From a virus: 64,000 bases of DNA. A program made the position numbers and the translations under genes. Shown here piece by piece: positions 1 through 51,984 of this stretch. Positions within the stretch are counted from its first letter, which is position 1. The number at the start of each line of letters is the position of its first letter. Under the pieces are notes generated by a model, which did not search any database, was not told the DNA's origin, and saw nothing but the letters and a program-made list of their open reading frames with translations. Location: positions 32,001 through 96,000 of IMG/VR virus record IMGVR_UViG_3300045988_131721; one strand, written 5' to 3'.

Positions 1-728
1 GTGAAATGGTTATAATAGAATACAAGAATGTACACGATATAGATGTATATTTTCCAGAATATGATTGGATTTTTAAAAGTGCAACATATCAATCTTTTAA
101 AAAAGGAAGTATTAAATGCCCTTATGATAGAAGTATATATGGTGTAGGATATATTGGTGAAGGTGAATATAAAATATGGGAAAATGATAAAACAACTAAG
201 GTTTATGATACTTGGCAAAGTATGCTAAAAAGATGTTATAACGAGAAATATCATAAGAAACGTCCAACATATATCGGTTGTGAAGTGTATAAAGATTGGT
301 TGAATTTTCAAAACTTTGCTAAATGGTATAAGGATAATTATTATGAGGTTGGTAATGAAAAGATGTGCTTGGATAAGGATATATTATTTAAAGGAAATAA
401 AATATATTCACCAGATACATGTATATTTGTACCAGAAACAATAAATAAATTATTTATTAAAAATGATAAAAATAGAGGAGAATCAGTTATAGGTGCAACA
501 CTTTGTAAAAATGGTAAATATCAAGCACAATGTAATATTATTAACCCAGAAACTGGAAAATCAAAACAAGAATATTTAGGTAGATACGATACTCAAGAAA
601 AAGCTTTTCAAGTTTATAAATACCACAAAGAACGTAACATAAAACAAATAGCTGATTATTATAAGATACATATTCCACAGAAATTATATGATGCAATGTA
701 TAATTATGAAGTTGAGATTGATGATTAA
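1..728 (+). CDS. Homing-endonuclease-like protein, family 1 (degenerate HNH-like core plus C-terminal AP2-like DNA-binding domain), copy 1 of 8; 5' end outside window
   Basis: Frame is open from base 1 (SEMVIIEY). Shares blocks DIDVYFPxYDW, CPYxR, GVGYxGEGxYK, WxxMLxRCY, FQNFxxW, LDKDILxKxNKIYSPxTCxxVPxTIN and YLGxYDTQEKAFxxYKYYKExNIKxxADY with seven other ORFs in the window. Confidence 0.65.
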   Translation, partial: EMVIIEYKNVHDIDVYFPEYDWIFKSATYQSFKKGSIKCPYDRSIYGVGYIGEGEYKIWENDKTTKVYDTWQSMLKRCYNEKYHKKRPTYIGCEVYKDWLNFQNFAKWYKDNYYEVGNEKMCLDKDILFKGNKIYSPDTCIFVPETINKLFIKNDKNRGESVIGATLCKNGKYQAQCNIINPETGKSKQEYLGRYDTQEKAFQVYKYHKERNIKQIADYYKIHIPQKLYDAMYNYEVEIDD

Positions 729-790
729 AAATAATTAATAAAAGCATTGACAAATAATTTTATTATGATATAATTATTAATATAAGGTGG
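727..790 (+). promoter_or_regulatory. Class I sigma-A-type promoter with upstream AAAATAATTAATAAA element
   Basis: TTGACA 747-752, 16-nt spacer, TGaTATAAT with TATAAT at 769-774, then TAT-TAATATAAGGTGGTGAT leader. AATAATTAATAAA at 730-742 sits at UP-element position. Confidence 0.7.
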
Positions 791-797
791 TGATTAG

Positions 798-907
798 ATG
801 ATTGAAAATGGGAAGATTTAAATTATTCTAGAGAAAATGTGAAATTATTAATTGATATTTGTAATGATTACAAGCCAAGTATTCAAATCAATATGTTTGA
901 GGATTAA
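798..907 (+). pseudogene. Small ORF broken by a 1-nt shift in an A-run just after the start codon
   Basis: ATG 798 reads MIENGKI-stop. The adjacent frame reads KWEDLNYSRENVKLLIDICNDYKPSIQINMFED-stop. One extra A in GAAAATGGG would join them. Further start-less coding-like fragments follow up to about 1000. Confidence 0.3.
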
Positions 908-1077
908 TTACTCCTTTAACTAATGCAGAACCCCTTAAACAAGCATTTACAAGATATTTTGGATATTTCAATAAGAGTAGAGAACAGCTTATATAAATAA
1001 AAATTTTACAATATTTGTGAAGATATGTAACATATTTTTTGTAAATACATAATATATATTAAAAAGGGGTTGATATT

Positions 1078-1989
1078 ATGAATAAAAATACAAGTGTAGC
1101 GATAGATATAGGTAATATTACATCTATTGGTGTGTCAAATGAAAAAGAAGTTGTTATCGAATCAAGAATAAAAGAATATTATGGAGGTATCGATGATTTA
1201 ACATCACATGAAATTTTTGAATTTGACGGTAAAAAATATATAATTAACGAAGGAAAATTTGAATTTGATATTTTGAAATTTAAAAAAGATAATTATTTAA
1301 TGTTACTTTATTATTGTATTAGTAAATGTACTAATTTAAATAATATTAATCTTGTTACTTGTATCCCTGCTAGTAGATATAAATCTCGTAAAGACGAAAT
1401 GAAAGAATTTATAAAAAGTAATAGTAAAAAAACTGTAGTAATTGAAGGAAAGAAAAGAATAATAAACATTGAAAATATAGAAGTCTTTCCAGAGGGGTAT
1501 GCATTCAAAACAGATAAAAATATAATAAATAAAATATCAAAAAATGCCGATACAACATTTATAGACCTTGGAGGATTGACCAATGATATTGTAGAATTTG
1601 ATTCTGATATGAGATTAAAAAATGCTAACAGTATAAATATCGGATTGTTAACATTATATAATTCTGTAAAAGAATATATTAATACAACATATGATTTAGA
1701 TTTATCTATTGAAGAATGTAAAGCAATATTTAATAATGAACAAACATTATTAGTTGATAGTAAATTTGAATATAAAAATGAATTAGTTAAAAGATTTATA
1801 GTTAATTTAATAAATGAAATTAAAGCTGTTTGTCCTAATTTAAAAAATTCAAATATATTCTGTCTAGGTGGTGGAAGTAATATAATAGGTAGTACAATAA
1901 AAAAACTTTATCCACAGACAATTGTTTGTAATGATATAAAATTACAAACAAGATGTTTATTAAATATAGCTAATAAGTTATATAAGTAG
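1078..1989 (+). CDS. parM: Actin-like plasmid-segregation ATPase (ParM/StbA/Alp family)
   Basis: Actin-fold motifs AIDIGN (phosphate 1), VFPEGYA, FIDLGGLTNDIV (phosphate 2) and CLGGGSNIIG (adenosine). 303 aa, with RBS AAAGGGG upstream. Confidence 0.7.
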   Translation: MNKNTSVAIDIGNITSIGVSNEKEVVIESRIKEYYGGIDDLTSHEIFEFDGKKYIINEGKFEFDILKFKKDNYLMLLYYCISKCTNLNNINLVTCIPASRYKSRKDEMKEFIKSNSKKTVVIEGKKRIINIENIEVFPEGYAFKTDKNIINKISKNADTTFIDLGGLTNDIVEFDSDMRLKNANSINIGLLTLYNSVKEYINTTYDLDLSIEECKAIFNNEQTLLVDSKFEYKNELVKRFIVNLINEIKAVCPNLKNSNIFCLGGGSNIIGSTIKKLYPQTIVCNDIKLQTRCLLNIANKLYK

Positions 1990-1999
1990 GTGAGTAATT

Positions 2000-2248
2000 A
2001 TGACAAAGACGATTAGAGAGGTTAGATTGACTTTTAATGAAAAAGATAAAGATATATCTGAATGGTTAAAAGGAAAATCAAGTCAAACAGCTTACATTAA
2101 AGACATTCTTCGATTACACATGCAGATTGAACAATCGTATTTAGCTAATGGCATGAATATAGAACAAAGTGTTTCACGTGAAACTGTAAATGTAGAAGAA
2201 AAGAAACAAGATGAGTTTGATTTTGATTTGAGTGATTTGAATTTATAA
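2000..2248 (+). CDS. Small ribbon-helix-helix-like DNA-binding protein, candidate ParR-type adaptor
   Basis: 82 aa, 10 nt downstream of the ParM-like gene. N-terminus REVRLTFNEKDKDISEWL...AYIKDILRLH fits a beta-strand plus two helices. Acidic tail. Confidence 0.45.
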   Translation: MTKTIREVRLTFNEKDKDISEWLKGKSSQTAYIKDILRLHMQIEQSYLANGMNIEQSVSRETVNVEEKKQDEFDFDLSDLNL

Positions 2249-2275
2249 GGGGATTAATTTCCCCTCTAATTTTTA
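2248..2275 (+). terminator. Rho-independent terminator
   Basis: AGGGGA-TTAATT-TCCCCT hairpin followed by CTAATTTTT. Confidence 0.7.
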
Positions 2276-2451: not shown

Positions 2452-3333
2452 ATGAAAGGATATAAAGTATTTAATTCAGATTGGACTTGCAGAGGTTTCC
2501 AATATAAAGTAGGAGAAACATATAAATATGAAGGAAAAATAAGTATATGTGAAACAGGATTCCATTTTTGTAAAAAACTAATTGATTGTTTTAATTATTA
2601 CACTTTTGACCCAGAAAACAAAGTAGCTATAATAGAAGCTACTGGTGAAGTTAAAGAAAGTAATTATTCAAATAATAAATGTGTAACAAATGAAATAAAA
2701 ATAATAAGAGAATTAAACTGGCATGAAGTATTAGATATGGTTAATTTTAATAAAGGTAACACAGGTATTAAAAACACAGGTAGTTATAATTCTGGTAATT
2801 ACAATACTGGTATTAAAAACACAGGCGATTATAATTCTGGAGATTATAATACTGGTGACTTTAATTCTGGTGATTACAATACTGGTAAATTTAATTCTGG
2901 TAGATTTAATACTGGTAAGTTCAATGCAGGAAATTATAACAGAGGCAGTTTTAACATTGGAGATTGTAATTTAGGCAATAAAAAAGCAGGATGCTTTTGT
3001 ACTGATGATAAATATGAAACAATTAAATTATTTAATAAAGAGAGTGATTGGACATTAAACACATGGAAGGATAGTCATGCATTCAGAATAATGAATAATT
3101 ATTTTGAATTAACTTTATGGATTAATGAATATAAAATGACAGATGAAGAAAAAGAAAAACATCCAGATTATAAAGTTGCTAGAGGTTATTTAAAAGAATT
3201 AAGTTATGCAGAGGCATGGAAAAATATGTGGAATCATATAAATGATAAAGAAAAAGAGGTATTTACTTTATTACCTAACTTCGATAAAGATATCTTTAAA
3301 GAAATAACTGGAATAGATATAGAAGAAAATTAA
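2452..3333 (+). CDS. Pentapeptide-repeat protein with conserved N-terminal KVF..DW.CRGFQY..G..Y...CE.GFHFC domain
   Basis: About 13 consecutive 5-residue units (GSYNS GNYNT GIKNT GDYNS GDYNT GDFNS GDYNT GKFNS GRFNT GKFNA GNYNR GSFNI GDCNL). The N-terminal domain resembles one I recall as DUF7666; this needs verification. Confidence 0.6.
   Translation: MKGYKVFNSDWTCRGFQYKVGETYKYEGKISICETGFHFCKKLIDCFNYYTFDPENKVAIIEATGEVKESNYSNNKCVTNEIKIIRELNWHEVLDMVNFNKGNTGIKNTGSYNSGNYNTGIKNTGDYNSGDYNTGDFNSGDYNTGKFNSGRFNTGKFNAGNYNRGSFNIGDCNLGNKKAGCFCTDDKYETIKLFNKESDWTLNTWKDSHAFRIMNNYFELTLWINEYKMTDEEKEKHPDYKVARGYLKELSYAEAWKNMWNHINDKEKEVFTLLPNFDKDIFKEITGIDIEEN
2752..2979 (+). repeat. 15-nt-period coding tandem repeat (pentapeptide repeats)
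   Basis: Repeated AAYWSYGGTRAYTWY-like units encoding residues 101-176 of the 2452-3333 ORF. Confidence 0.8.
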
Positions 3334-9112: not shown

Positions 9113-9697
9113 ATGAAAAGATGTATTAAAATTACAGATAGTAATGAAGTGTGTGATAAAGATATAAAATCGGTAACATTCGTTTGTGAAAATTGTGAAG
9201 TTATTAAAATACCGATTGAAAATTTTACAAAATTAAATATATCAAAAGTAGATAATGAATATTATAATTTTGAATGTGTTATTAAGAAAATAGACAATAT
9301 TGAATATCGTTCACTTACAAATGACTTGAGTCCTTTTAATAGATTGTCTATGTCTGATGATATAGTGAGAATTGAATTAGAACTTATAGATGGCACAATA
9401 AAATTAATACGACCTGTTTGGGAAGGAACGGATTTTAATAATTATTGTCAAGAATCATGTTTATTAAAATTTAATAAAATAAAAATAAATATAAATGAAA
9501 AAGTTAAACAAGCTAAAATAAAAAGAAATATAGGAGAAAAAGCTATAAAAATATTAGATTACATTTACCAAGATACAGGTGTGAATTTTTGTAACGATTG
9601 TGTTTATCATGAGGACTGTAAAAAAATGAAACAAAATAAAGACATTGACGTATGTGATGTATTGTATTTTTTATCAAATTCATATGAAAATAATTAA
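9113..9697 (+). CDS. Hypothetical Cys-rich protein
   Basis: 194-aa ORF with RBS AGGAGGAG. C-terminal CNDCVYHEDC motif. Confidence 0.55.
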   Translation: MKRCIKITDSNEVCDKDIKSVTFVCENCEVIKIPIENFTKLNISKVDNEYYNFECVIKKIDNIEYRSLTNDLSPFNRLSMSDDIVRIELELIDGTIKLIRPVWEGTDFNNYCQESCLLKFNKIKININEKVKQAKIKRNIGEKAIKILDYIYQDTGVNFCNDCVYHEDCKKMKQNKDIDVCDVLYFLSNSYENN

Positions 9698-9750
9698 TAA
9701 AATGCATTGACAAATAACATAGCTGTGATATACTTATTTGTATAAGGAGG
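9687..9750 (+). promoter_or_regulatory. Class I sigma-A-type promoter
   Basis: AATAATTAATAAA 9689-9701, TTGACA 9707-9712, 16-nt spacer, TGATATACT with TATACT at 9729-9734. Followed by an RBS and a 5-codon ORF (9758-9775). Confidence 0.65.
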
Positions 9751-10734: not shown

Positions 10735-10821
10735 TTAAAAATAATTAATAAAGGGGTTGATTGAAATGGGGTAAAAATAGATAGGATTGGTGAAACAGGA
10801 GTTAATACATTTGGAAGTAAA

Positions 10822-11544
10822 ATGGTGATAATAAGATATAGGACAAATAAAGATATGGATGTTTATTTTCCAAAATATAATTGGACTTTTTATAATACAA
10901 ATTATATTACTTTTAAAAAAGGTGAAATATTTTGCCCATATGAAAGAAGGTTTTGTAGAGTAGGTTATTTAGGAGAAGGAAAATATAAAATGAGTGAAAA
11001 AGGTAAACATACGAGAACTGGGTCTGTTTGGATGAGTATGTTAAATAGATGTTATAATGAAAAACTTCATATAAAACATCCAAGTTATAAAAAATGTCAT
11101 GTTAGTGAAGAATTTCATAATTTTCAAAACTTTGGTGATTGGGATAATGATAACTATTATGAAATTGAAGGTGAAAGAATGCATTTAGATAAAGATATAT
11201 TAATAAAGCATAACAAAATTTATTCACCAGAAACTTGTATATATGTACCACAAACTATAAATGGTTTATTTACCAAACGTGATAAAGGTAGAGGTGAGTC
11301 GTGTATCGGTACAAGTCCTCTTAAAAATGGTAAATATCAAGTGAACTGTTGTTTACTTAATCCAGAAACTGGTAAGTCTAAAAATGAATATTTGGGATTA
11401 TATGAAACGCAAGAAAAAGGATTTGAGATTTATAAATATTATAAAGAGAGAAATATTAAACAAGTTGCTGATTATTACAAAAATATAATTCCACAGGAAT
11501 TATATCAAGCTATGTATTTTTATGAAGTAGAAATTGATGATTAA
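10822..11544 (+). CDS. Homing-endonuclease-like protein, family 1, copy 2 (N-terminus disrupted)
   Basis: Full family-1 block set. The conserved N-terminal segment GVKIDRIGETGVNTFGSK is in frame upstream, but the ATG at 10766 is out of frame by 1 nt in a G4 run. Confidence 0.6.
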   Translation: MVIIRYRTNKDMDVYFPKYNWTFYNTNYITFKKGEIFCPYERRFCRVGYLGEGKYKMSEKGKHTRTGSVWMSMLNRCYNEKLHIKHPSYKKCHVSEEFHNFQNFGDWDNDNYYEIEGERMHLDKDILIKHNKIYSPETCIYVPQTINGLFTKRDKGRGESCIGTSPLKNGKYQVNCCLLNPETGKSKNEYLGLYETQEKGFEIYKYYKERNIKQVADYYKNIIPQELYQAMYFYEVEIDD

Positions 11545-11581
11545 TAAGAAAATAATTAATAAACTTAGGAGGGTGTGTATT

Positions 11582-13209: not shown

Positions 13210-13341
13210 ATGAGTAAATATTGTATTCATTGTGGAAAGAAATTAAAAAATGGAGAGCTAAGTTATTGCGAAAGTTGCTATGAAGAATTGAGAACTAAAG
13301 GAATGTTTACAACTGAAAAAGAAAAAATATCAAAGAAGTAG
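13210..13341 (+). CDS. Zinc-ribbon peptide (43 aa)
   Basis: CIHCG...CESC. RBS AAAGGAG. Preceded by a GGAGGA-ATCAA-TCCTCC hairpin. Confidence 0.45.
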   Translation: MSKYCIHCGKKLKNGELSYCESCYEELRTKGMFTTEKEKISKK

Positions 13342-13413
13342 TTATATACTATAAAGATAAAGTGTCAGAAAGATTTATTAATAGCATACAAAACTATAAA
13401 GGAGAGATAAAGC

Positions 13414-15300
13414 ATGAATAGACATTGCAAAGTTTGTGGTCGAAAGTTAACTGATGGAGATAATATAAAAAGGGAATTATGTAATAAGCATTATTTACAG
13501 ATAAAAAAGTATGGATTTAATTTAGATGATAATCAAAGAAACGAATATGATTTAAATGAATATGAAATAAAAGGCAACATGGCTTATTTGAAATTATATG
13601 ACAATTTTCAAGAGGAATTAAATGAGAAAGCAATTATAGATGATTGTACAGTTGAATTAATAAATAAATATAGATGGGATAAAAATAGAACGTGTATAAC
13701 AACAAATATAAATGGTAAAATAATACCTCTTGAAAATTATATTCTTAATACTAATGAAAAGGTTAATTTTAAAAATGGAAATAATTTAGATTTTAGATTA
13801 AATAATTTAATGGTAATTCACAAAGATGTAAAAGATAAAAAAATAGACAAAAGAAAAAAAGGTAAAATTGATATAATAAGTTATGGATTTTCAAGTCAAC
13901 AAGTTACAGGAAGTAGTTGGGGAGTTTATTATGATAATATTAAAGAAAATAAAAGAGATATGTTACTTATTGAATGTGGGTTAGTACAAGGTAAAGATGT
14001 AGTTACCGATTATAACAATAATAAAAAAATGATTTCTAATATACCGTTTGAAAGATGTGGGCAAATGATATTTTCACACTGTCATCTTGACCACTTAATG
14101 AATGCTGTAGCATCAATAAAAAAAGGATTTAATGGTATAGTATATATGACTAAAACTCAAAGAATATTAGCTGAAAAATTATTGTTAGATGGTGCTTATA
14201 TTCATGAAAGAAATGTAAAAGAATTAAAAAATAAAGGTAAATCACCAGAATTATTTTATGATGAGTCTTCAGTATATTTATTTTTAAATAAAGTTAAAAT
14301 TGTAGAAATGAATGAAAAAATAAAAATCAATAATAATATTACATTTAGATTTAGAAATAACTCTCATGTATTAGGTGCTACTCAAATTGAATTATGGATT
14401 ACTAAGCCTAATAATCAAATAAAACATATTTTATATACAGGTGATTTAGGTACAAATCACAATTTTGAATTCCAACCTTTTCTAAAACAAAATGAGATAA
14501 TCAAGTCATGTGACTTAGCATTATTTGAAAGTACATACTCAGATATAAAAAGAAGTTTTACTAAAAAAGATTGTATAATAGAAAGAGAAGATTTTAAAAA
14601 TACATTATTAGAAACTATAAAAAACAAGTCAAGATGTTTAGTACCGACTTTCTCTTTTAGCAGAGGACAAATGTTAATGTGTTGGATTTATGATTGGTTT
14701 AAGGATTTAGAAGATAATTTTCAAGTTATAATAGATAGTAAACTTTTCCAAGAAATTAATAATGCATATACTCAAATATTAGAAGATGAAGAATTAGAAT
14801 ATTGGTCAACAGTTATTTCATGGGATAAATTTAAATTTGTTGGAGATTATGAAGAAACATTAGAATTATCTACTAAAAACGATGGTATACCAAGAATAAT
14901 TTTATCTTCTTCCGGATTTATGGAGGCTGGTAGGGTAAGAACTTGGGCAAGTAAAATACTAAATAATAAAGATGATACAATATGTTTTGTTGGTTATTCA
15001 TCGGCAAATAGTCTTGCAAATAAAATACAAAATCAAAAAGAAGACGTATTTATTATAGATGGTATAAAATGTATTAGGAGATGTAATATAAAAATATACA
15101 GAACATTTTCATCTCATATACAATATGATGAACTTTTAGATTATTTTTATAGATTAAAAACAAACAAAATAATACTTCATCATGGTGAATTAGATTCAAA
15201 AAATGAATTTAAAAAATATGCTACAAAATTATTAAGAGAAAAAGGAATAACTACTAAAATAATATGTACAGATAAAGATAATACTGAATTTAGTTTATAG
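13414..15300 (+). CDS. Metallo-beta-lactamase-fold nuclease (beta-CASP-like) with N-terminal zinc finger and degenerate HNH-like segment
   Basis: HxHxDH motif FSHCHLDH, later GDLG, ESTYSD, PTFSFSRGQ and LHHGE. N-terminus CKVCG...CNKH, and YILNTNEKVNFKNGNNLDFRLNNL resembling HNH_3 without the His. Confidence 0.65.
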   Translation: MNRHCKVCGRKLTDGDNIKRELCNKHYLQIKKYGFNLDDNQRNEYDLNEYEIKGNMAYLKLYDNFQEELNEKAIIDDCTVELINKYRWDKNRTCITTNINGKIIPLENYILNTNEKVNFKNGNNLDFRLNNLMVIHKDVKDKKIDKRKKGKIDIISYGFSSQQVTGSSWGVYYDNIKENKRDMLLIECGLVQGKDVVTDYNNNKKMISNIPFERCGQMIFSHCHLDHLMNAVASIKKGFNGIVYMTKTQRILAEKLLLDGAYIHERNVKELKNKGKSPELFYDESSVYLFLNKVKIVEMNEKIKINNNITFRFRNNSHVLGATQIELWITKPNNQIKHILYTGDLGTNHNFEFQPFLKQNEIIKSCDLALFESTYSDIKRSFTKKDCIIEREDFKNTLLETIKNKSRCLVPTFSFSRGQMLMCWIYDWFKDLEDNFQVIIDSKLFQEINNAYTQILEDEELEYWSTVISWDKFKFVGDYEETLELSTKNDGIPRIILSSSGFMEAGRVRTWASKILNNKDDTICFVGYSSANSLANKIQNQKEDVFIIDGIKCIRRCNIKIYRTFSSHIQYDELLDYFYRLKTNKIILHHGELDSKNEFKKYATKLLREKGITTKIICTDKDNTEFSL

Positions 15301-21252: not shown

Positions 21253-21270
21253 TAAAAGGAGAGATGTGTA

Positions 21271-37714: not shown

Positions 37715-38456
37715 ATGATTGAAAAAAATGTAATATATAATACAGACTGTTTTTCCTTAATGGAACAAATGGTTGAAGAAAATTTTAAAGTGGATGTTAT
37801 ACTGACTCAAAGTCCTCCCTAGCCTATCTAAGGAGGACTACATAAATCTATTTCAACACTTTAATAAAATATTAATTGATAATGGAACAGTGTTAATTGA
37901 AATCCCATATAATAGAAAAAAACCAAGTTATGTGTTTCAAATAATAAATGAAATAGAAATGAATACGGAATTTATGTTAGGTGACATTATATATTGGAAT
38001 AAAACTGACATTCTTCCAGATAATATGAGTTGTAATCAATCAACAAAAAATATATCACAAATACATTTATTTTGCAGAAAGAATGAATTTAAAACTTACA
38101 AGACTAATAAAATAGTTAAAAGCCACAGAGAGAACGGACAAAGAACATATACTAATATATCTAATATAATTAATGCACCAGTTAGAGATAAAGGTGTTAA
38201 AACATTCAATCATAAAGTATTTTCAACTGAATTAGTTAAAGAATTGTTATATAAATATGTGAAAAAAAGAGGAATTGTCTTTGATTGTTTTCTTGGGACT
38301 GGAACTGTGGCAGTAGCAACAATTAATAAAAATATTTATTATATTGCAAGTGAAATAGACAAGGAGCAAGTAGAGTATGCTAGAATAAGAGTGTTGAAAA
38401 GAAAGAAAGAAATAAAGAAGGAGTATTATAAAAATTATAAAAGAAAGAAGGAATGA
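37715..38456 (+). pseudogene. Beta-class DNA methyltransferase split by a +1 frame change at CCC TAG (pseudogene or recoded gene)
   Basis: N-terminal part MIEKNVIYNTDCFSLMEQM..VDVILTQSPP-stop (TAG 37820-37822). The +1 frame continues SLSKEDYINLFQHFNKILIDNGTVLIEI...FDCFLGTGTVAVA (motif I). Confidence 0.6.
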
Positions 38457-38460: not shown

Positions 38461-39237
38461 ATGGGGAGTAAAATTGACAGAACTGGTGAGAAAAATATTA
38501 ATAATTTTGGAAGTGAAATGGTTATTGTTGAATACAAAAAATACTCTGATATAGATGTTTATTTCCCAGAATATGACTGGACAACTAAAAATAATACATA
38601 CCAAAATTTTAAAAATGGTAAAATCAAATCACCTTATGATAAAAGCGTATTTGGTGTTGGATATTTAGGGGAGGGAGAATATGAGAGTAGAGAAAATGGT
38701 AAGCTTACTAAAGTTTATGCTACTTGGTGTCATATGTTAGAAAGGTGTTATTATGAAAAATATCACAAAAGGTATCCTACATATATAGATTGCAAAGTAA
38801 GTGAAGAATGGCATAACTTTCAAAATTTTGCTAAATGGTATGAAAACAATTATTATGAAGTTGAAGGAGAAATAATGTGTTTAGATAAGGATATTTTGAT
38901 AAAACATAATAAAATATATAGTCCAGAAACTTGTATTTTTGTGCCACAAACAATTAATACTTTATTTGTTAAAAATAATAAAAATCGAGGCAATTCAGTT
39001 ATAGGTACAAGTCCTATGAATGGTAAATATATGGTGACTTGTAGTATGTTCGACTTTAAAACTGGTAAGTCTAAAAATGAATATTTAGGAAGGTATAAAA
39101 CACAAGAAAAAGCATTTGAAGTATACAAATATTATAAAGAAAAGAATATTAAACAAATAGCAGATTATTTTAAAGAACAAATACCTATTCAACTATATAA
39201 TACTTTATATAATTATATAGTTGAAATTACAGATTAG
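38461..39237 (+). CDS. Homing-endonuclease-like protein, family 1, copy 5
   Basis: Full family-1 block set. Starts 4 nt after the methyltransferase stop. Confidence 0.65.
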   Translation: MGSKIDRTGEKNINNFGSEMVIVEYKKYSDIDVYFPEYDWTTKNNTYQNFKNGKIKSPYDKSVFGVGYLGEGEYESRENGKLTKVYATWCHMLERCYYEKYHKRYPTYIDCKVSEEWHNFQNFAKWYENNYYEVEGEIMCLDKDILIKHNKIYSPETCIFVPQTINTLFVKNNKNRGNSVIGTSPMNGKYMVTCSMFDFKTGKSKNEYLGRYKTQEKAFEVYKYYKEKNIKQIADYFKEQIPIQLYNTLYNYIVEITD

Positions 39238-39300
39238 AAATAATTAATAAATTAAAAAAACTATTGACATTAATCACCTCATGTGTTATTATCTATATAA
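39238..39300 (+). promoter_or_regulatory. Class I sigma-A-type promoter
   Basis: AATAATTAATAAA 39239-39251, TTGACA 39263-39268, 17-nt spacer, TGTTATTAT with TATTAT at 39286-39291. Confidence 0.6.
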
Positions 39301-39303: not shown

Positions 39304-40428
39304 GTGATTAATGTGAAAATAATAAATAAAAATAATATTTATAAAGAAAATGAAAAAGAATTTTTCGTACTTAAAACTTTTAAAGACGTAATAGATTTAG
39401 GAAATAACAAATATCTCACACACCTATCGGCAGAAGAGATTGGTAGAATGTGGGATAAGGAGGAATTGACATATTATACTCCTACTCAACGTGGAGTGAA
39501 ATATAAGAAAATTAATAATAAAATAAAAGAAGAAACAATAACAAAACAATCAAACATATTAGAAATGCAGAATTTAATATTAAAAGGACAACTAGGAACT
39601 ACTCAATTAACATTCAATGTGCTTGATAATGGTAAAGGATTAATTAATTATAATAAAGATAAAAGAGAACTTTTTATTAAAGGAAGTATAGCTTTATTAG
39701 ACGGAAATCATAGGGTTAAAGCATGTTACCGAGCTTATAAATCTTCTCAAATACTTGGCGATGAAGAGTTAATTAAGAATGTGAAAAATACTATATTCCC
39801 CGTTATAATTTTACATTATGAAGATTCAAAAGCCAAGATTGTATTTTCTCAAATGTCTAAAGGATTAAAAATAAGTAAATCTTTAGCTGAATCATTCGAT
39901 AGTACAAAAGCTAGCAATCGAATCATATTAAGATTAAATGAACATTCTGTTCTTAAAGGTATGATTGACGTAAGAAAAAATAGCGTAAGCAAAGATGACA
40001 TGGAACATATAGTAACTTTTAATACCCTAAAAATGGCTATCGATACTTCGTTCCCCTCAATTAAAAATGAATCGGAAGAGAAGGAAATATATATGTTTTT
40101 ATCTTCATTTTTCAATGAACTATTTTGTTTATTCCCCCACATGAAAGATGGAGAAGGACGTATATTAATTAGAAAAGAATCATTAGAATGTGAAGATATT
40201 ATGTTCCATGCTTATATATCACTAGCAGAAGATTTATACATGAAGCGAAAATCTGGCAAGTGGAAAGAAGAGTTAAAAGCTTTAGAAGAAATAGATTTTT
40301 CAAAATCTAATAGTATTTGGGATTGCATAATTAAAGAAGGGAAAGAATCTTACATCACAATTAACACTAAACAATCAAGAGCATTAATGATAAGAGTGTT
40401 TAAACAAGAATTCTATAGTAATTTATAA
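39304..40428 (+). CDS. DGQHR-domain protein (DndB-like, ParB/Srx fold)
   Basis: PTQRGV, ALLDGNHRVKA (DGQHR-type motif), FPVIIL and FSQMSKGLKISKSLAESFD parallel the DndB-family layout. About 370 aa. The exact start is uncertain (GTG). Confidence 0.55.
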   Translation: MINVKIINKNNIYKENEKEFFVLKTFKDVIDLGNNKYLTHLSAEEIGRMWDKEELTYYTPTQRGVKYKKINNKIKEETITKQSNILEMQNLILKGQLGTTQLTFNVLDNGKGLINYNKDKRELFIKGSIALLDGNHRVKACYRAYKSSQILGDEELIKNVKNTIFPVIILHYEDSKAKIVFSQMSKGLKISKSLAESFDSTKASNRIILRLNEHSVLKGMIDVRKNSVSKDDMEHIVTFNTLKMAIDTSFPSIKNESEEKEIYMFLSSFFNELFCLFPHMKDGEGRILIRKESLECEDIMFHAYISLAEDLYMKRKSGKWKEELKALEEIDFSKSNSIWDCIIKEGKESYITINTKQSRALMIRVFKQEFYSNL

Positions 40429-41795: not shown

Positions 41796-42578
41796 GTGAA
41801 AATGGTAGCAAAAATTAATAGAAAAGGAGAAAAGAATTATAACACTTTCGGAAGTGAAATGATAATTACAGAATATAGAGAACGTATGGACATTGATATA
41901 TATTTTCCAGAATATGATTGGACTTTTAAAGGAGCAACATATCAATCTTTCAAAAACGGTAGAATTGCATGTCCTTATGAAAGAAGATATTATGGAGTTG
42001 GTTGTATTGGAGATGGAGAATACAAAGTAAGTGAAAACGGTAAACTAACTAAGGTTTATAACACTTGGCATCATATGTTGAGAAGATGTTATGATGAAAA
42101 ATACCACAAAAAACATCCTACGTATATTACTTGTGAAGCATCTGAGGAATGGTATAATTTTCAAAACTTTGCAGAATGGTACGAGGAAAATTATTATGAG
42201 GTAGATGGTGAAAGAATGGAATTAGATAAAGATATAATAATTAAGCATAACAAAATATATAGTCCAGAAACTTGTATTTTTGTACCTCAAACAATAAATT
42301 TATTATTTGTTAAATGCGATAGGAGTAGAGGGGAATCAGTTATTGGAACAAGCCCATATCGAGATAAATATAGAGTAAATTGTTGTTTAATCAATCCTCG
42401 AACTGGTAAATCAAAGAGTGAATATTTAGGGTTATACGACACTCAAGAGAAAGCGTTTGAAGTGTATAAATATTACAAAGAAAAGAATATAAAAGAAGTA
42501 GCTGACTACTTCAAAAGACAAATACCAAGGGAATTGTATTATAGTATGTGTACTTATGAAGTAGAAATAGATGATTAA
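41796..42578 (+). CDS. Homing-endonuclease-like protein, family 1, copy 6
   Basis: GTG start. Full family-1 block set. Preceded by a partial class II leader (ATTAATATACTAATATAAGGAAAGG). Confidence 0.65.
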   Translation: MKMVAKINRKGEKNYNTFGSEMIITEYRERMDIDIYFPEYDWTFKGATYQSFKNGRIACPYERRYYGVGCIGDGEYKVSENGKLTKVYNTWHHMLRRCYDEKYHKKHPTYITCEASEEWYNFQNFAEWYEENYYEVDGERMELDKDIIIKHNKIYSPETCIFVPQTINLLFVKCDRSRGESVIGTSPYRDKYRVNCCLINPRTGKSKSEYLGLYDTQEKAFEVYKYYKEKNIKEVADYFKRQIPRELYYSMCTYEVEIDD

Positions 42579-42602
42579 AAATAATTAATAAAAATTTTAA
42601 TT

Positions 42603-43696: not shown

Positions 43697-45955
43697 ATGA
43701 TAGTTAAAAAAAGAAATGGAAATATGGTGGCATTTGATAAAAACAAAATAATAGTAGCTATTCAAAAAGCAATGTTAGAAGTAAATATAAATACAGATAG
43801 AGCTTATGATATAACTGAAAAGGTGTTAGATAAAATATCAGATAAAAATGAAATATCTATAGAAGAAATCCAAGATATTATTGAAGAAACTTTAATAGAA
43901 AAAAATTATCCTACAGTAGCTAAAGCATATATACTTTATAGAGAAAAAAGAAAAAGAACTAGAGAGAACCAAGCTAGACTATATGAAGAATCTCAAAAAC
44001 AAATATCAGAAATTATGGCAATGAAAAACATAGAAAATTCAAACGCAAATGTGGATGAGGCTTCATTTAGTGGCAAAAATTCCAAGGTAACTTCTTATTT
44101 TTTAAAAGAATATGCTTTGAATAATTTAATGAGACCAGAGGTTGCAAAGGCACATAGAGATGGTTTATTATACACTCACGATTTAGATAATTATGCAAGT
44201 GGGATGCATAATTGTTTATTTATAGATTTTGAAGATTTATTTAATAATAAAGGTGGTTTTACAACTAGAAATGGTGATGTAAGAAAACCAAATGATATTA
44301 TGACATTTTTTCAATTAGTAGCAGTAACATTTCAATGTGCCTCTCAATGTCAATATGGTGGAATCGCTAGTAATAAAATAGATTATGATGCATCTCCTTA
44401 TGTAGCTATAACCTTTAGAAAAAGTTTTAGAAATGCTTTAATGGATATAGATGGAATAAGTAAAGAACACGCAGAATTAATAATGAAAAATATAGAAGAT
44501 ACCAACGGAGACATTATAAAATTAGAAAATGAAAAGCTTAAATTATTTTATCCTAAACATTACAAAGTTGCAGAAAGACATACTATAGAAAAAACCATGC
44601 AAGGAGCAGAGTCTTTATACCATAACCTTAATACTCTTGAGTCTAGAGCAGGAAGTCAAGTTCCTTTTACAAGTATAAATTTTGGGACAGACACATCACC
44701 AGAAGGAAGATTAGTATCTAAGGCGTTATTGACAGCTAGTATAAATGGTATTGGTAAATTTAATAAAACATCAATATTCCCAATAAGTATATTTAAATAT
44801 GCAAAAGGAATAAATGACAAAGAAGGAACTCCAAACTACGATTTAAAATTATTAGCTTTAGAATCTTTATCAAAAAGAATATATCCTAATTTTTGCAATG
44901 TTACAATAGAGGGTGAAGGTGATATAAATGACCCAGATACCCAATCAGCAACTATGGGATGTAGGACGAGATTAGGGTATGATGTAAATGGTATGGGTTG
45001 GCACAAATCTGGCAGAGGCAATATAACACCTGTAACATTGAATCTTGTTGATATGGGAATTAGACATGGTATCTGTTTAGGTAAAAGAGATGTTGCAGAT
45101 ATTGACGGATTTATGGATGAATTAGAAGAGAATCTAAAATTATCTGAAACAGCATTATTAGATAGATATGAATGGATTTGTTCTCAAAAATCTAAAAGTG
45201 GATTCTTTACTCATCACAACGGGTTAATGAAGAATCTCTTAGGAAGAACGCTGAAAGATGAAGAAGATGTAAAAGAATCGATGAAACATGGCACATTAGC
45301 TTTAGGATATATAGGAATTGCAGAATGTATGTATGCTATGTTTGGTGAAACTCATACATATAATAAAAATGTTTATAATTTTGCATTAAAAATAGTACAA
45401 AGAATCAATTCATTTGCAAAAGAGTGTGTAGAAAGAAATCATCTAAATTTTAGTTGTTATGCTACTCCAGCGGAGGGTAGTTGTTTTACATTAAGAAATA
45501 AATTAGTTGAAAAATATGGTATTATAAAAGGTGTTACAGATAGAGAATACATAACTAACTCACACCATATACCTGTGTATGAAAAAATATCTATTAAAAA
45601 CAAAATAGATTTAGAAGCACCTTTCAGTAAATTAGCGACTGGTGGATATATTTTATATGTTGAATTAGAATCATCTTTTATGAATAATATAACTGCTGTT
45701 GAAAAAATAATAGATTATGCAATGAGTAAAGATGTTTATTATTTTGCATTAAATTTTCCAATAGATACTTGTATGAATTGTGGATATTCTTCAGAAATAA
45801 AAGAAAACTGCCCAAAATGTGGCAGTAATAAAATTGAAAGACTTAGACGTGTCACAGGTTATTTAACTACTGATTATTCTAAATTTAACAATGGTAAAAT
45901 AGCTGAAGTAGAAGATAGAGTTAAACATTCTGTTGGTGATATTAATGAATATTAG
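43697..45955 (+). CDS. nrdD: Anaerobic ribonucleoside-triphosphate reductase (class III)
   Basis: N-terminal ATP-cone (VKKRNGNMVAFDKNKI), C-terminal zinc ribbon CMNCGY...CPKCGS, glycyl-radical motif RRVTGYL. Confidence 0.9.
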   Translation: MIVKKRNGNMVAFDKNKIIVAIQKAMLEVNINTDRAYDITEKVLDKISDKNEISIEEIQDIIEETLIEKNYPTVAKAYILYREKRKRTRENQARLYEESQKQISEIMAMKNIENSNANVDEASFSGKNSKVTSYFLKEYALNNLMRPEVAKAHRDGLLYTHDLDNYASGMHNCLFIDFEDLFNNKGGFTTRNGDVRKPNDIMTFFQLVAVTFQCASQCQYGGIASNKIDYDASPYVAITFRKSFRNALMDIDGISKEHAELIMKNIEDTNGDIIKLENEKLKLFYPKHYKVAERHTIEKTMQGAESLYHNLNTLESRAGSQVPFTSINFGTDTSPEGRLVSKALLTASINGIGKFNKTSIFPISIFKYAKGINDKEGTPNYDLKLLALESLSKRIYPNFCNVTIEGEGDINDPDTQSATMGCRTRLGYDVNGMGWHKSGRGNITPVTLNLVDMGIRHGICLGKRDVADIDGFMDELEENLKLSETALLDRYEWICSQKSKSGFFTHHNGLMKNLLGRTLKDEEDVKESMKHGTLALGYIGIAECMYAMFGETHTYNKNVYNFALKIVQRINSFAKECVERNHLNFSCYATPAEGSCFTLRNKLVEKYGIIKGVTDREYITNSHHIPVYEKISIKNKIDLEAPFSKLATGGYILYVELESSFMNNITAVEKIIDYAMSKDVYYFALNFPIDTCMNCGYSSEIKENCPKCGSNKIERLRRVTGYLTTDYSKFNNGKIAEVEDRVKHSVGDINEY

Positions 45956-46433
45956 TGGAATAGTGTATGATTCAGTTGTTGATGGAGAAGGTTTAAGAAA
46001 TACAATATTTGTATCGGGCTGTTTTCATTTTTGTAAAAACTGCCATAATCCACAAACATGGGACTTTAATTATGGTTATGAGTTTACAGAAGATTTACAA
46101 GATGAATTTATAGAAAAATGCAAAGAAAATATTTTATTAAATGGAATAACTATAAGTGGGGGAGACCCTATTTATAGTTATCGAGAATTAATTCCTTTTT
46201 TAAAGAAGTATAAAAAGAAAAATCCCACACACGATATTTGGTTATATACTGGATTCAAATATGAGGGTATAAAAAACAATGAAATATTAAAATTAATAGA
46301 TGTTTTAGTTGACGGAGAATATATAGAAGAATTAAAGGATTCAACATTGTCTTTTAGAGGTAGTAGTAATCAAAGAATTATAGACGTGCAAAAAAGTTTA
46401 AAAGAAAATAAAGTAATATTATTGAATATATAA
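45945..46433 (+). CDS. nrdG: Anaerobic ribonucleotide reductase activating protein (radical SAM)
   Basis: DGEGLRNTIFVSGCFHFCKNCHN (CxxxCxxC). Overlaps the nrdD 3' end. Confidence 0.85.
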   Translation: MNISGIVYDSVVDGEGLRNTIFVSGCFHFCKNCHNPQTWDFNYGYEFTEDLQDEFIEKCKENILLNGITISGGDPIYSYRELIPFLKKYKKKNPTHDIWLYTGFKYEGIKNNEILKLIDVLVDGEYIEELKDSTLSFRGSSNQRIIDVQKSLKENKVILLNI

Positions 46434-46822: not shown

Positions 46823-47545
46823 ATGAATATAAAAGTAGGAGATAAAGTTAGAATAAAAGAAGATTTGAGTGAATGTGAATTTGGATATTGTGGTTATATG
46901 GAAGAGTTTGCAGGTAAAGAGACAACTGTAATAAGTACTTTTGGTAAAGGTGTGATAAAGTTAGATATAGATGAACAAGTCTGGGATTGGTCAGAAAATG
47001 TATTAGAATTAATAGAGGAAGGAAAAACAATGAAAATGAAAAGAATAGATTATATATTAAATGCCAGAGATAACATACAAGCGATACTAGATGAAACAGT
47101 ACTAGATTGCGATATATGTCCAGCTTCTTGTGAGAACTGTAATGGTAATTGCGAGTTTCATTATAAAAAATATCTAAATGAAGAAATAGAAGTAAATGAA
47201 TCAGATTTAAAAGACGTTGGGGTTAAAGAAGAATTAGATACAAAAGAGAATATAGTTAACGACACTGTAAATCCATTTATGGAAGAATATGAAAAAATAG
47301 TAATGGATACAATGGAATTGTGTAAACGTAAAAATAAAGATTATGGTAATGCAACAGATGAATCATTTAAACAATTCGGTGATGTAAGTTATTTGGTAAG
47401 ATGTTTTGATAAATGGAGTAGAATAAATACATTATTAAAAAATAGAAAAGCCGAGGTATCTGAATCCCTAGAGGACAGTTTATTAGACCTTAGTAACTAC
47501 TTATTCCTTTGGGTTACAAGTAGAAGATTAAAAGAAAATAATTAA
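46823..47545 (+). CDS. Two-domain protein: N-terminal GDKVRIKEDL module plus C-terminal DUF1599-like (nucleotide-modification-associated) domain
   Basis: C-terminus KNKDYGNATDESFKQFGDVSYLVRCFDKWSRINTLL...EDSLLDLSNYLFLW resembles DUF1599. The N-terminal module is shared with 49219 and 50426. Confidence 0.5.
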   Translation: MNIKVGDKVRIKEDLSECEFGYCGYMEEFAGKETTVISTFGKGVIKLDIDEQVWDWSENVLELIEEGKTMKMKRIDYILNARDNIQAILDETVLDCDICPASCENCNGNCEFHYKKYLNEEIEVNESDLKDVGVKEELDTKENIVNDTVNPFMEEYEKIVMDTMELCKRKNKDYGNATDESFKQFGDVSYLVRCFDKWSRINTLLKNRKAEVSESLEDSLLDLSNYLFLWVTSRRLKENN

Positions 47546-47619
47546 TCAATGCAAGGTGATGTTATGAGCAAAAAATTGATAGGATAGGAGAAAAAAGATT
47601 TAATAATTTTGGGAGCGAA

Positions 47620-48342
47620 ATGATTATAGTTAGATATAAAAAAGCAAAAAATATAGATGTTTATTTTCCTCAATACGATTGGATTGCCAAAAATAAAACT
47701 TATCAGAATTTTAAAAACGGTCAAATAAGTTGTCCATATGAGAAAAGATATTTTATGATTGGCTATTTAGGTGAAGGAGATTATAAATCAAGAGAAAATG
47801 GTAAAGATACTAGGGTTTATGATACTTGGGTTAATATGATGCAGAGATGTTATGATTCTAAATATCACGAAAAATATCCTACTTATAAAGATTGTGGTGC
47901 ATCTGATGAATTTCATAATTTTCAAAATTTTGGAATGTGGGATGGTGATAATTTCTATCAAGTTGAAGATGAAGTAATGTGTCTTGATAAAGATATTTTA
48001 ATTAAACATAACAAAATCTATTCACCCGATACTTGCATTTATGTGCCTAAAACAATTAATAGTTTATTTACTAAGAGACAAAATGATAGAGGTGTCTCGG
48101 CTATTGGAACAACTCCTACTGAAAATGGGAAATACGAGGTACAATGTTGTTTAATTAATCCTGAGACTGGAAAATCAAAACAAGAACACCTAGGTACTTA
48201 TGATACCGAGTTAGAAGCCTTTGAAGTTTACAAATATTATAAAGAAAAAAATATTAAAATGGTTGCAGACTATTATTTTGGAAAAATATCTGAAAGACTT
48301 TACAATGGTATGTATAATTATATAGTAGAAATAGACGATTAA
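47620..48342 (+). CDS. Homing-endonuclease-like protein, family 1, copy 7 (N-terminus disrupted)
   Basis: Full block set. The conserved IDRIGEKRFNNFGSE segment is in frame upstream, but the ATG at 47564 is out of frame by 1 nt in an A6 run. Confidence 0.6.
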   Translation: MIIVRYKKAKNIDVYFPQYDWIAKNKTYQNFKNGQISCPYEKRYFMIGYLGEGDYKSRENGKDTRVYDTWVNMMQRCYDSKYHEKYPTYKDCGASDEFHNFQNFGMWDGDNFYQVEDEVMCLDKDILIKHNKIYSPDTCIYVPKTINSLFTKRQNDRGVSAIGTTPTENGKYEVQCCLINPETGKSKQEHLGTYDTELEAFEVYKYYKEKNIKMVADYYFGKISERLYNGMYNYIVEIDD

Positions 48343-50424: not shown

Positions 50425-50425
50425 T

Positions 50426-50662
50426 ATGTTTAGTATAGGAGATAAAGTTAAATTAATAATAACAGAGGAAGAATTAAATGAAATTTTAAAAACCAATAAA
50501 GAATTAAAAGAAAGTATTTTAAAATGTTATAATCAACGAGTTGGCACAATAGTTGATAAATTCTTACCAAGCGAACTCATACCAGAAACTTATTATTGTT
50601 TAGATGTAAGTCCAGACGTTGCTTGGAAAGAAAGCGAATTAAAGTTAGTGAATGGAGAGTAA
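50426..50662 (+). CDS. Stand-alone GDKV-module protein (78 aa)
   Basis: MFSIGDKVKLII...WKESELKLV aligns with the N-termini of 46823 and 49219. RBS AAGGAGG. Confidence 0.5.
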   Translation: MFSIGDKVKLIITEEELNEILKTNKELKESILKCYNQRVGTIVDKFLPSELIPETYYCLDVSPDVAWKESELKLVNGE

Positions 50663-50666
50663 TCTT

Positions 50667-50822
50667 ATGAATCTTTTAATTAATTTTATATTATTAATTA
50701 TACTTAGTTATGTTTTAGAAGAATCTTTTAAGTTATTAAAACCGTATAGACATATAATAATTAGCATTGTGATACTATCAGTTGTGTTAATTATGTTTAA
50801 TTCGTTTGATTTATTATTCTAG
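50667..50822 (+). CDS. Small membrane protein (51 aa)
   Basis: Two hydrophobic segments. RBS TGGAGAG. Confidence 0.35.
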   Translation: MNLLINFILLIILSYVLEESFKLLKPYRHIIISIVILSVVLIMFNSFDLLF

Positions 50823-50834
50823 GGAGGATATATT

Positions 50835-51185
50835 ATGAAAATGAACAAAAAAGAATTACAACAGTTTGATGCTTATGTAGAAGAATTAGGAAGAGGACTT
50901 AAAAATACAATATTATGGGAATCTACGGATGAATACTTGAGATTACAATGTGAATATAAGTATGACAGTTTTCTTGTTAATTATATTGAAAGGTATATGG
51001 GGATACAATACGAAGATGTCAAAGACGATATGAGATTGAAATCAAGATTTGATAAAATTTTATTTCCAGTATTAAAAGATATGAGAGAAGAGTTAAAGAT
51101 TGAACACGAAGAAAGAATAAAAGAAGAAAGAAAAAGAGCAAGAGAAAAAGAAATGAAAAAAGGACATAAAAGAAAGATAAAATGA
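50835..51185 (+). CDS. Hypothetical protein with basic C-terminus
   Basis: 116-aa ORF with RBS GGGAGGA. Confidence 0.5.
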   Translation: MKMNKKELQQFDAYVEELGRGLKNTILWESTDEYLRLQCEYKYDSFLVNYIERYMGIQYEDVKDDMRLKSRFDKILFPVLKDMREELKIEHEERIKEERKRAREKEMKKGHKRKIK

Positions 51186-51204
51186 TTGATAAGGGGTGAA
51201 CAAT

Positions 51205-51984
51205 ATGGGAAGAAATAAAATTAATAGAACAGGAGAGAAGAATGTTAATAATTTTGGAAGTGAAATGGTAATTATTAAATATAATAATGCACATGATATA
51301 GATGTTTATTTTCCAAAATATAATTATACAGCTAGAAATAGAGAATATGGAAGTTTTAAAAAGGGGAATGTCAAATGCCCATATGATAGAACTGTGTTTG
51401 GAATAGGTTATGTTGGTGAAGGAAAATATAAAGTGAGTGAAAATTGTAAACTAACTAGAGCCTATAATACATGGATGCATATGTTAGAAAGATGTTATGA
51501 TAAAAAACTACATGAAAAACGTCCCACTTATATTGGATGTACAGTATCAGAAGAATGGCATAACTTTCAAAATTTTGCTAAATGGTATTATAATAGCTAT
51601 TATGAGATAGAAAGTCAAAAAATGCATTTAGATAAAGATATTTTAATTAAAGGAAATAAAATTTATAGTCCAAAAACTTGTATATTTGTACCAGAAAGAA
51701 TAAATACTTTATTTACTAAACGACAAAATAAGAGGGGAGAATCGGTTATTGGAACAAGTCCTAAAAATGGCAAATATGTAGTGCAATGTCATTTAATCAA
51801 TCCTAAAACAGGAGAATCTAAACAAGAACATTTAGGCTATTATAATACACAAGAGAAAGCTTTTGAAATATACAAATACTATAAAGAGAAAAACATTAAG
51901 GAAGTGGCAGATTATTATAAGGAACAGATACCTCAAATTCTTTATAACGCTTTATATAATTATGAAGTTGAAATATATGATTAG
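51205..51984 (+). CDS. Homing-endonuclease-like protein, family 1, copy 8
   Basis: MGRNKINRTGEKNVNNFGSEMVIIKY plus the full block set. Last gene of the plus-strand arm. Confidence 0.65.
   Translation: MGRNKINRTGEKNVNNFGSEMVIIKYNNAHDIDVYFPKYNYTARNREYGSFKKGNVKCPYDRTVFGIGYVGEGKYKVSENCKLTRAYNTWMHMLERCYDKKLHEKRPTYIGCTVSEEWHNFQNFAKWYYNSYYEIESQKMHLDKDILIKGNKIYSPKTCIFVPERINTLFTKRQNKRGESVIGTSPKNGKYVVQCHLINPKTGESKQEHLGYYNTQEKAFEIYKYYKEKNIKEVADYYKEQIPQILYNALYNYEVEIYD

Follow-up and report, generated by a model that had tools for sequence, protein, structure and literature searches.

The window described here is a stretch of 64,000 nucleotides (nt) of viral DNA, corresponding to positions 32,001 to 96,000 of IMG/VR record IMGVR_UViG_3300045988_131721. 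It is phage-like with 25% GC, and its genes lie on the plus strand from 1 to 52 kb and on the minus strand from 52 to 64 kb. Within its early/replication block there are eight paralogous, intergenic open reading frames (ORFs) on the plus strand, which on sequence grounds belong to the published IPA-HNH/AP2 family of homing endonuclease genes (HEGs). We consider it probable that they are free-standing, homing endonuclease-type selfish genes, active or recently active, with a nuclease step that is predicted. The sites that they occupy are polymorphic among related contigs, by presence/absence, replacement and decay, and mosaic breakpoints lie at the HEG edges.

The original prediction had placed eight collinear plus-strand copies in the window, and alignment of the ORF set (6-728, 10822-11544, 30435-31214, 32908-33690, 38461-39237, 41796-42578, 47620-48342 and 51196-51984) confirms their positions and their collinearity over 240-260 amino acids (aa). 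The copies are 61-69% identical to copy 1 at the aa level, with a mean column identity of 73%, and the block LDKDI..K.NKIYSP.TC..VP..IN is invariant across all eight, a similarity far beyond chance. The Lys reported earlier at the position compared with the HNH His is likewise present in eight of the eight. Copy 1 (1-728) has its 5' end cut by the window edge, bases 1-5 still coding for the conserved ...SE ahead of the Met, and is followed by a short junction motif, AATAATTAATAAA, at 730-742. Copy 3 (30435-31214) lies between the primase and PD-(D/E)XK exonuclease genes, and copy 4 (32908-33690) separates a promoter-like element (32851-32881) from the DNA polymerase gene's ribosome-binding site. 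Copy 5 (38461-39237), the one that we modelled, sits at the stop codon of a methylase gene and directly ahead of a junction motif (39239-39251). Copy 6 (41796-42578, likely ATG at 41802) has the motif 3' of it at 42580-42592 and a promoter-like element from 42604. Copy 8 (51196-51984) is the last gene of the plus-strand block and sits at the upstream stop codon, before a terminator-like hairpin; the mechanical ORF begins at GTG 51196, and the start is most likely ATG 51205, as given in the original prediction.

Two of the copies are frameshifted. Copy 2 (10766-11544) has an ATG at 10766 followed by a 1-nt frameshift, which leaves an open frame of 240 aa at 10822-11544; it is flanked by the junction motif on both sides (5' at 10740-10752, 3' at 11551-11563). 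Copy 7 (47564-48342) has its ATG at 47564 frameshifted in an A run, with an open frame at 47620-48342 and a motif variant at 47537-47549. In both, about 20 homologous N-terminal codons lie upstream, out of frame through 1-nt indels, so that only translation from an invariant internal Met would give protein. The frameshift of copy 2 is identical in the independent IMG/VR contig L028 and is thus not a sequencing error of the window assembly alone. Of a decayed ninth copy (13317-13412, plus strand), nothing but the final ~31 codons survives (KNIKEVVIYYKDKVSERFINSIQNYKGEIKH), and the beta-CASP/RMMBL gene (13414-15300) lies directly after it. With the eight paralogs as tblastn queries, this remnant is matched at E-values of 0.002-0.07 by six, 0.19 by copy 6 and 0.69 by copy 2. 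A 43-aa CxxC...CxxC ORF (13211-13342) overlaps it.

The paralogs adjoin primase, DNA polymerase, ThyX/methylase, NrdD/NrdG and RecU/dUTPase genes, in agreement with the earlier description of free-standing genes beside core genes; a neighbour described there as Rep-like is instead a DndB-like gene. No group I intron was matched by Rfam within the window, and together with the complete flanking ORFs this rules out that the window copies are intron-encoded.

Evidence of mobility comes from related genomes. For each window copy we placed its 600-bp flanks on 29 related loci (labelled L and a number). Site 5 is occupied in L001-L005, L007, L012 and L018, and empty, with a clean difference of ~792 bp, in L008, L010, L011, L017 and L021; in L025 a remnant persists, consisting of the last ~20 HEG codons only. 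At site 8 the window, L016 and L026 carry the HEG and ten loci lack it, among them L014, L015, L018-L022, L024 and L027. Site 3 lacks the HEG in L009 and L011 and keeps a remnant of it in L007, and site 4 is empty in L001. The slot of copy 6 contains a classical PF01844 HNH gene in L002; in L001 it holds no AP2-type HEG, and the left flank there is non-homologous, so that the junction is unaligned. Conversely, at least five further junctions (near 17.07, 25.37, 27.6, 43.52 and 46.6 kb) are filled in relatives and empty in the window. Presence/absence has precise boundaries at sites 3, 4, 5 and 8 and at 43.5 kb. At sites 5 and 8 the cassette consists of a leader of ~15 nt with a GGAG-like ribosome-binding site plus the ORF, placed exactly at the upstream stop codon, and the insert at site 4 is flanked by a TATAGGA repeat. 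The insertion of copy 5 (HEG5) also alters the last codons of the methylase, from ...NYKRK before the stop in the empty allele to ...NYKRKKE before the stop in the occupied one; this N6/N4 DNA methylase ORF (37890-38456, plus strand, 188 aa) covers only positions 53-219 of the PF01555 profile.

Occupied sites do not always hold the same gene. At site 4 of L007 the flanks are 99-100% identical to those of the window and the HEG is 69% identical (protein), and the alleles at site 5 are 100, 86, 71 and 65% identical. Compared with L001, identity is 86% to the left of HEG5 and 100% over HEG5 and ~1.8 kb to its right, the jump being located at the 5' edge of HEG5. The L007 allele of HEG5 is chimeric, with 96% identity followed by 77-82%. 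Because of the clean presence/absence, lineage replacement, decay and identity breaks at HEG edges, the family reads, from these comparisons, as a mobile element and not as a fixed set of regulators. The original prediction had set these two possibilities against each other, and the site-by-site comparison of relatives favours the first.

The paralogs are under purifying selection. Between pairs of copies the synonymous divergence (dS) is 0.9-2.1 and star-like, the median ratio of non-synonymous to synonymous divergence (dN/dS) is 0.21, and dN/dS of the core is 0.20. Since the pairwise dS values are high and star-like, the copies are old lineages, which probably arrived on separate occasions. 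Recent intragenomic duplication is ruled out by dS of 0.9-2.1 for all pairs, and the spread within the genome that was proposed earlier finds no support as a recent event. Among 23 alleles the LDKDIL/NKIYSP/VP..IN core is the segment of lowest entropy, and alternating AP2 strand positions and the loops of the N-terminal module are hypervariable. This pattern is as expected if recognition surfaces diversify around a fixed catalytic centre.

Pfam scans of the eight copies recovered no HNH_3, AP2 or other significant family (nothing at E<1), and NCBIfam scans of the same copies recognised none. The PHROGs matches are all named 'HNH endonuclease': phrog_953 (E 1e-54 to 1e-61), phrog_374 and phrog_2081 (about 1e-36). 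Homologues are found in 1451 phage records, the best at about 50% identity in Bacillus Herelleviridae and annotated 'HNH endonuclease' or 'AP2 domain protein'; in public data the homologue clusters number 6688 at 90% identity, and there are 14,260 representatives at 50% identity. A tblastn search with the central domain identified ORF59 (gp59) of phage ICP1 (NC_015157; E 5e-16, 40% identity), with R95, C96, E115, E116, W117, L141, D142, K143, D144, N150, Y153, P155, C158 and N166 in common, and the domain also matches Rheinheimera Barba phages.

One of the founders of the IPA-HNH HEG family (Barth et al. 2023, PMC10448857) is ICP1 gp59. The domain of this family is too divergent for the Pfam HNH_3 model, is followed by AP2 and is linked to HNH by an HHsearch statement. 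The genes stand free, reach several copies in some lineages and lie at recombination boundaries (PMC10448857). The window copies resemble the known members (ICP1 gp59, gp115/116 and gp209; Barbaviruses, Flaumdraviruses) in the module order with a C-terminal AP2 domain, the missing Pfam HNH_3 match, the free-standing position by polymerase and ribonucleotide reductase genes, the multiple copies found in some lineages, the frameshifted members and the location at boundaries of genetic exchange. They differ in the host lineage, an uncultured phage (25% GC, ~131-142 kb) from human gut metagenomes, and in their high density (eight copies and one remnant in 52 kb); in addition, the HHsearch link to HNH reported in that paper was not reproduced here. 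The exact copy 5 protein occurs on 15 contigs, and the related contigs of 131-142 kb come from human gut metagenomes. Megablast of the core genes against cultured phages gave no match, and tblastn with the 628-aa beta-CASP gene (13414-15300) gave distant human-faecal and Clostridium phage c-st matches only.

Already published are the IPA-HNH family, its association with recombination boundaries, the nuclease-plus-AP2 architecture (Magnani 2004, as cited in PMC5714182 and PMC10448857) and multicopy dispersal with degeneration, described in Xanthomonas phages (PMC2248197). New are the host lineage, the copy density and the natural set of empty, occupied, replaced and decayed alleles. Also new are the two properties of the core set out below, namely that the family nowhere has the catalytic His and that the core could not be tied to a known nuclease by any fold or profile method used.

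We modelled copy 5 with AlphaFold2 on 41 diverse sequences (predicted local distance difference test score, pLDDT, 95.7; predicted template modelling score, pTM, 0.88). The model shows a beta module at aa 1-60 (38461-38640, plus strand), a helical region, the core (aa 139-169, 38875-38967, plus strand) composed of a strand at 139-142, a loop, a strand at 159-162 and a helix at 163-169, and at the C-terminus a three-stranded sheet with a long helix (aa 183-236). The AP2/ERF-like sheet and helix span aa 176-220 (38986-39120, plus strand). Foldseek matched this C-terminal part to 1gcc (probability 0.99, template modelling (TM) score 0.62, root mean square deviation 2.3 Å) and to WRI1 (7wq5; probability 0.97). 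In a search of PDB sequences the family profile recovered the AP2 domains of WRI1 and ERF1, at E-values from 0.0085 (WRI1) to 3, the Pfam AP2 model itself remaining silent at E<1. The C-terminal AP2 domain that had been suggested from sequence is thereby supported at the level of the fold.

The N-terminal module gave weak Tudor/PWWP-like matches when the full model was compared with the PDB by Foldseek. It is present in 1-13 repeats in family members, up to 13 of them in tandem, and other members add CapR/DUF4379 zinc fingers (P0128). Such repetition is the behaviour of a homing endonuclease DNA-binding module, and we regard the beta module as a putative one. The proteins P0197, P0230 and P0263 (770-964 aa) consist of 11-13 tandem N-terminal beta modules of ~55 aa, with weak matches to the T4 Gp30.7 Pfam family; the central segment of P0263 is Vsr/MTES_1575-like by a weak Pfam match, and that of P0197 likewise, by sequence inspection only.

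The central domain, with the conserved pattern RCY...EEW...LDKD...NKIYSP...N, is found in varied contexts. Its LDKD...Y.P..C core, which stays constant across the family, is combined with AP2, I-HmuI-NUMOD-like, helix-turn-helix-like (weak, sub-threshold Pfam) or CapR/DUF4379 modules, and the same core lies between fragments of the DNA polymerase of Bacillus phage Bubs, the terminase of Yersinia phage fPS-86 and the replication protein of Staphylococcus phage PBSA08. The phrog_2081 proteins, encoded by introns in Bastillevirinae DNA polymerase genes and lacking a recognisable nuclease domain (PMC11878797), share the central RCY...EEW...LDKD...GNKLYSPETC domain (as in Bubs gp163), and InterPro likewise finds only DNA-binding domains in them. 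They differ from the window copies in being intron-encoded and in a C-terminal module that is I-HmuI-NUMOD-like instead of AP2. Judging from these relatives, the core is most economically explained as a nuclease, because it is the sole unassigned part of intron-borne HEG-like proteins.

Several features of the core fit an HNH active site. In the AlphaFold2 models (pLDDT 93-96) the strands at 139-142 and 159-162 are followed by the helix at 163-169 with the invariant N166, giving a beta(LDK)-loop(N150 K151 Y153)-beta(IFVP)-helix(N166) arrangement, the most conserved part of the protein and the presumed active site, with Lys143 where HNH_3 has His. This predicted beta-loop-beta-helix topology, with the Asp before the 'His' position, the loop Asn seven residues on and the Asn in the first helical turn, resembles at similar spacing that of I-HmuI/HNH_3 (PF13392), and relatives of the window family likewise carry NUMOD-like modules. 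In contrast to I-HmuI/HNH_3, the window family has no catalytic His and shows no sequence, profile or Foldseek similarity to it; the bona fide HNH_3 HEGs in related phages (L001, L003) clearly form another family. A parallel in overall layout is the canonical HNH(HNN)-AP2 group (Magnani et al. 2004, as cited in later work; Xp10/OP1/Xop411, PMC2248197; T4-like RB49), in which a nuclease-like module also precedes AP2 and six to eight dispersed copies per genome occupy variable positions and decay to AP2 stubs. Those proteins keep Asp-His and match HNH_3, whereas the window family has Asp-Lys (Arg in distant relatives) and no HNH_3 signal, together with an extra helical RCY...EEW region and an N-terminal beta module.

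A series of observations weighs against the predicted nuclease, and hence against reading the copies as working homing endonucleases. Lys143 takes the 'His' position in every one of the eight copies and in no fewer than 90% of 41 diverse members, with Arg in a distant relative in Enterococcus phage ZJGS3 (..SIDRIDNDKGYSPDNCRW..); among the weak phage homologues checked as intermediates only Lys or Arg occurs there, and none has His. As far as the sequences indicate, the canonical general-base His is replaced by Lys/Arg family-wide. Foldseek of the central-domain model (pLDDT 93.4) against the PDB returned a best E-value of 5.7, and the full model gave no His-Me finger in the PDB, AP2 and weak N-terminal matches being the only ones. 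Searching PDB sequences with three profiles (A1, A2, A8) yielded weak AP2 matches and none for the central domain, and a broader 17-sequence central-domain profile found nothing in the PDB. We also built a canonical HNH_3 profile (27 sequences) from a genuine HNH_3/NUMOD HEG that related phages carry. Comparison by hhalign of the family profile with an HNH_3 HEG, with the 27-sequence profile and with trimmed beta-beta-alpha segments gave probabilities of 0.1-0.3, so that no HNH link was found, within a comparison that covered one HNH_3 subfamily profile. A survey of His-Me enzymes lists only three His-less groups, of which one, PacI, relies on a loop Tyr; the two that have neither the His nor a substitute Tyr are treated as inactive (PMC5714182). 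Within the library searched, no biochemical characterisation of any IPA-HNH protein was found, and given the age of the paralogs (dS about 1), part of the copies may have lost activity.

The HNH_3 resemblance noted in the original prediction was thus not reproduced by Pfam, by hhalign against the HNH_3 profile, by PDB sequence search or by Foldseek; the link rests on resemblance of motif and topology and on the HHsearch statement in PMC10448857. The window family does contain an invariant loop Tyr (Y153), whose relevance to catalysis is speculation. We propose tentatively, and with less confidence than we have in the homing reading as a whole, that the RCY...EEW...LD[K/R]D...Y.P..C...N domain is an active nuclease without the canonical His, either a His-Me variant using Lys/Arg143 or a PacI-like Tyr153, or a fold new to the PDB. 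If this holds, the family would constitute a major class of phage homing endonucleases with undescribed chemistry.

For the selfish genes we propose the following cycle, in which nuclease activity, chemistry and target sites are what we infer. A cassette of ~0.8 kb, comprising the ORF, a short leader that brings a ribosome-binding site for it and in some cases a copy of the promoter-like element, would sit at a gene junction in the early/replication operons and share the transcripts of the adjacent genes. The beta module at the N-terminus and the AP2 domain at the C-terminus, bearing the hypervariable surface, would read a long, lineage-specific DNA site, and the invariant core (D142-K143-D144...N150-K151-Y153...N166) would nick or cut the allele that lacks the HEG in a relative infecting the same cell. 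Repair by recombination, with the HEG-bearing genome as template, would then transfer the cassette together with flanking markers. Over time, cassettes would be frameshifted, decay to C-terminal stubs, or be lost or replaced. The T4 seg/mob genes offer a precedent, being intergenic cassettes by core genes with presence/absence between relatives and co-conversion of flanks; they belong to unrelated nuclease families (GIY-YIG and canonical HNH), and for T4 cleavage and homing have been demonstrated.

Two repeated elements lie at many of the junctions concerned. The motif AATAATTAATAAA, allowing at most one mismatch, occurs 43 times in the window against 7.2 expected, 41 of the 43 on the plus strand (for example at 730-742, 9689-9701, 16796-16808 and 21244-21256). 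It is near-absent from the minus-strand block at 52-64 kb: two copies are present, at 53-54 kb, and one of these runs in the block's sense orientation. Often the motif includes the upstream stop codon, and after it comes a ribosome-binding site or a sigma70-like promoter; candidate functions include binding of a regulator, translational coupling and RNA processing. It follows five of the eight HEGs and 20 of 64 other plus-strand genes, a non-significant difference (p=0.09), and precedes four of seven HEGs, and a spacing of 'stop + A + motif' is found at four of eight HEGs against three of 64 other genes (p=0.002). As a target of the HEGs or a HEG-specific signal the motif is ruled out, since a third of the block's genes are followed by it and the genome of the phage itself would contain it some 35 times. 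It is a general gene-junction signal of the early/replication block, neither a mark of HEGs nor a plausible target. The flanking positions described in the original prediction stand, and the enriched fixed spacing and the arrangement at site 3 leave room for part of its idea of spread by way of a repeated intergenic sequence.

The second element, ATAGGTAATTTT-N12-TGTTAATA(yAsTAATAT), is present in nine exact copies and three variants, all on the plus strand, against none expected (starting at 2311, 9779, 17565, 19872, 27673, 32851, 35502, 40469, 42604, 43525, 46454 and 49985). It sits about 20-40 nt upstream of ribosome-binding sites, adjoins HEG4 and HEG6 (copies 4 and 6), and is probably a promoter of a phage-specific class. 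The junction repeats may give a cassette the homology with which to establish at an ectopic site, or a promoter copy may travel as part of the cassette.

These repeats also suit an explanation without any cutting, namely that the copies are passive cassettes whose proteins no longer cut or never did, shuffled by general or phage recombination through short intergenic repeats and paralog homology. At 43.5 kb the HEG is bracketed by two promoter-like elements in L018 and L024, with a single copy in the empty window allele; at site 3 the junction motif is present once in the empty alleles (L009/L011) and on both sides of the HEG when occupied (30409-30421, 31216-31228). The TATAGGA repeat around HEG4, the enriched 'stop + A + motif' spacing, the chimeric HEG5 allele of L007 and the lack of a detectable nuclease fold point in the same direction. 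However, the repeats measure only 7-60 bp, and site 8 has neither repeat although its insertion is equally precise. Passive DNA would not hold dN/dS near 0.2, and the family-wide Asp/Lys/Asn constellation, together with a core found in group I introns and split essential genes (PMC11878797), is hard to explain without an enzymatic role. We therefore regard passive shuffling as unlikely.

Somewhat less probable still is that the copies are domesticated, nuclease-dead DNA binders that act as regulators or as anti-host or anti-competitor factors, like CapR/CasPR, and might bind the repeated junction or promoter-like elements. The absent catalytic His, the position of several copies beside promoter-like repeats and purifying selection on all domains would be in line with such a role, and AP2/HEG DNA-binding modules have repeatedly been co-opted as repressors (bioRxiv 10.64898/2026.02.23.707548; PMC10448857). 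CasPR/CapR-type proteins share the AP2 domain with the window family, some members of which carry CapR/DUF4379 fingers (P0128). Yet CasPRs lack the central LDKD domain and are stable in acr loci, whereas the window copies have the LDKD domain and, by Pfam scan, no CapR domain. Site occupancy is highly unstable among near-identical genomes, and the two frameshifted copies of eight, the stubs and the lineage replacement follow the course of a selfish element and not that of a regulator on which the phage depends. It is very improbable that the proteins serve mainly as interference weapons that damage competing related phage genomes, with homing as a by-product: the insertion sites do adjoin essential replication genes, many relatives co-circulate in the same metagenomes and the PhiPA3 intron HNH gives a precedent (cited in PMC11878797/PMC11620839), but this role, which is compatible with homing, still needs the predicted nuclease activity and cannot be told from ordinary homing by sequence.

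Homing endonuclease-type selfish genes thus remain our preferred reading of the copies. An abundant, uncultured group of human-gut phages would then be densely colonised by IPA-HNH/AP2 selfish genes, and the HEGs mark the recombination mosaic of its replication module. Among the related contigs, more than 12 sites are represented by alleles that are naturally occupied, empty, replaced or decayed, ready substrates for the first biochemistry on the family. A practical question is whether the very common annotation 'HNH endonuclease' is correct, given that there is no catalytic histidine and no similarity detected to any solved nuclease. If active, the proteins would represent a pool of long-site DNA-recognition modules (AP2 plus the repeatable beta module) with natural specificity variants.

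Other putative mobile genes and exchanges are found in the window and its relatives. The plus-strand gene at 15329-16804 is homing-endonuclease-like and of another family (phrog_559, E 4e-64), with four DUF4379 treble-clef zinc fingers; the phrog_559 group has been described as Vsr-like (PMC11878797). Where the window (43697-46433) and L002 carry nrdD/nrdG, L001 (14614-18047) and L003 (8112-10487) show a module swap: they have a gene for the large subunit of a class I/II ribonucleotide reductase and, after it, a canonical HNH_3/NUMOD HEG, and these relatives are 98-100% identical to the window up to about 43.7 kb. The reductase gene of L001 is interrupted by a LAGLIDADG gene. In L002, nrdD is split by a 302-bp insertion without an ORF (17696-17958; equivalent to window position 44955/44956), which matches the group I intron model RF00028 with 45.1 bits (E 4e-10), just below the gathering score of 50; nrdD of the window is intronless. 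The replication block also carries unusual cargo: an actin-like ALP/ParM protein (1078-1989), a DUF7666 and pentapeptide-repeat protein (2452-3333), an alpha-amylase-family protein (26500-27558) and the DndB-like protein (39304-40428).

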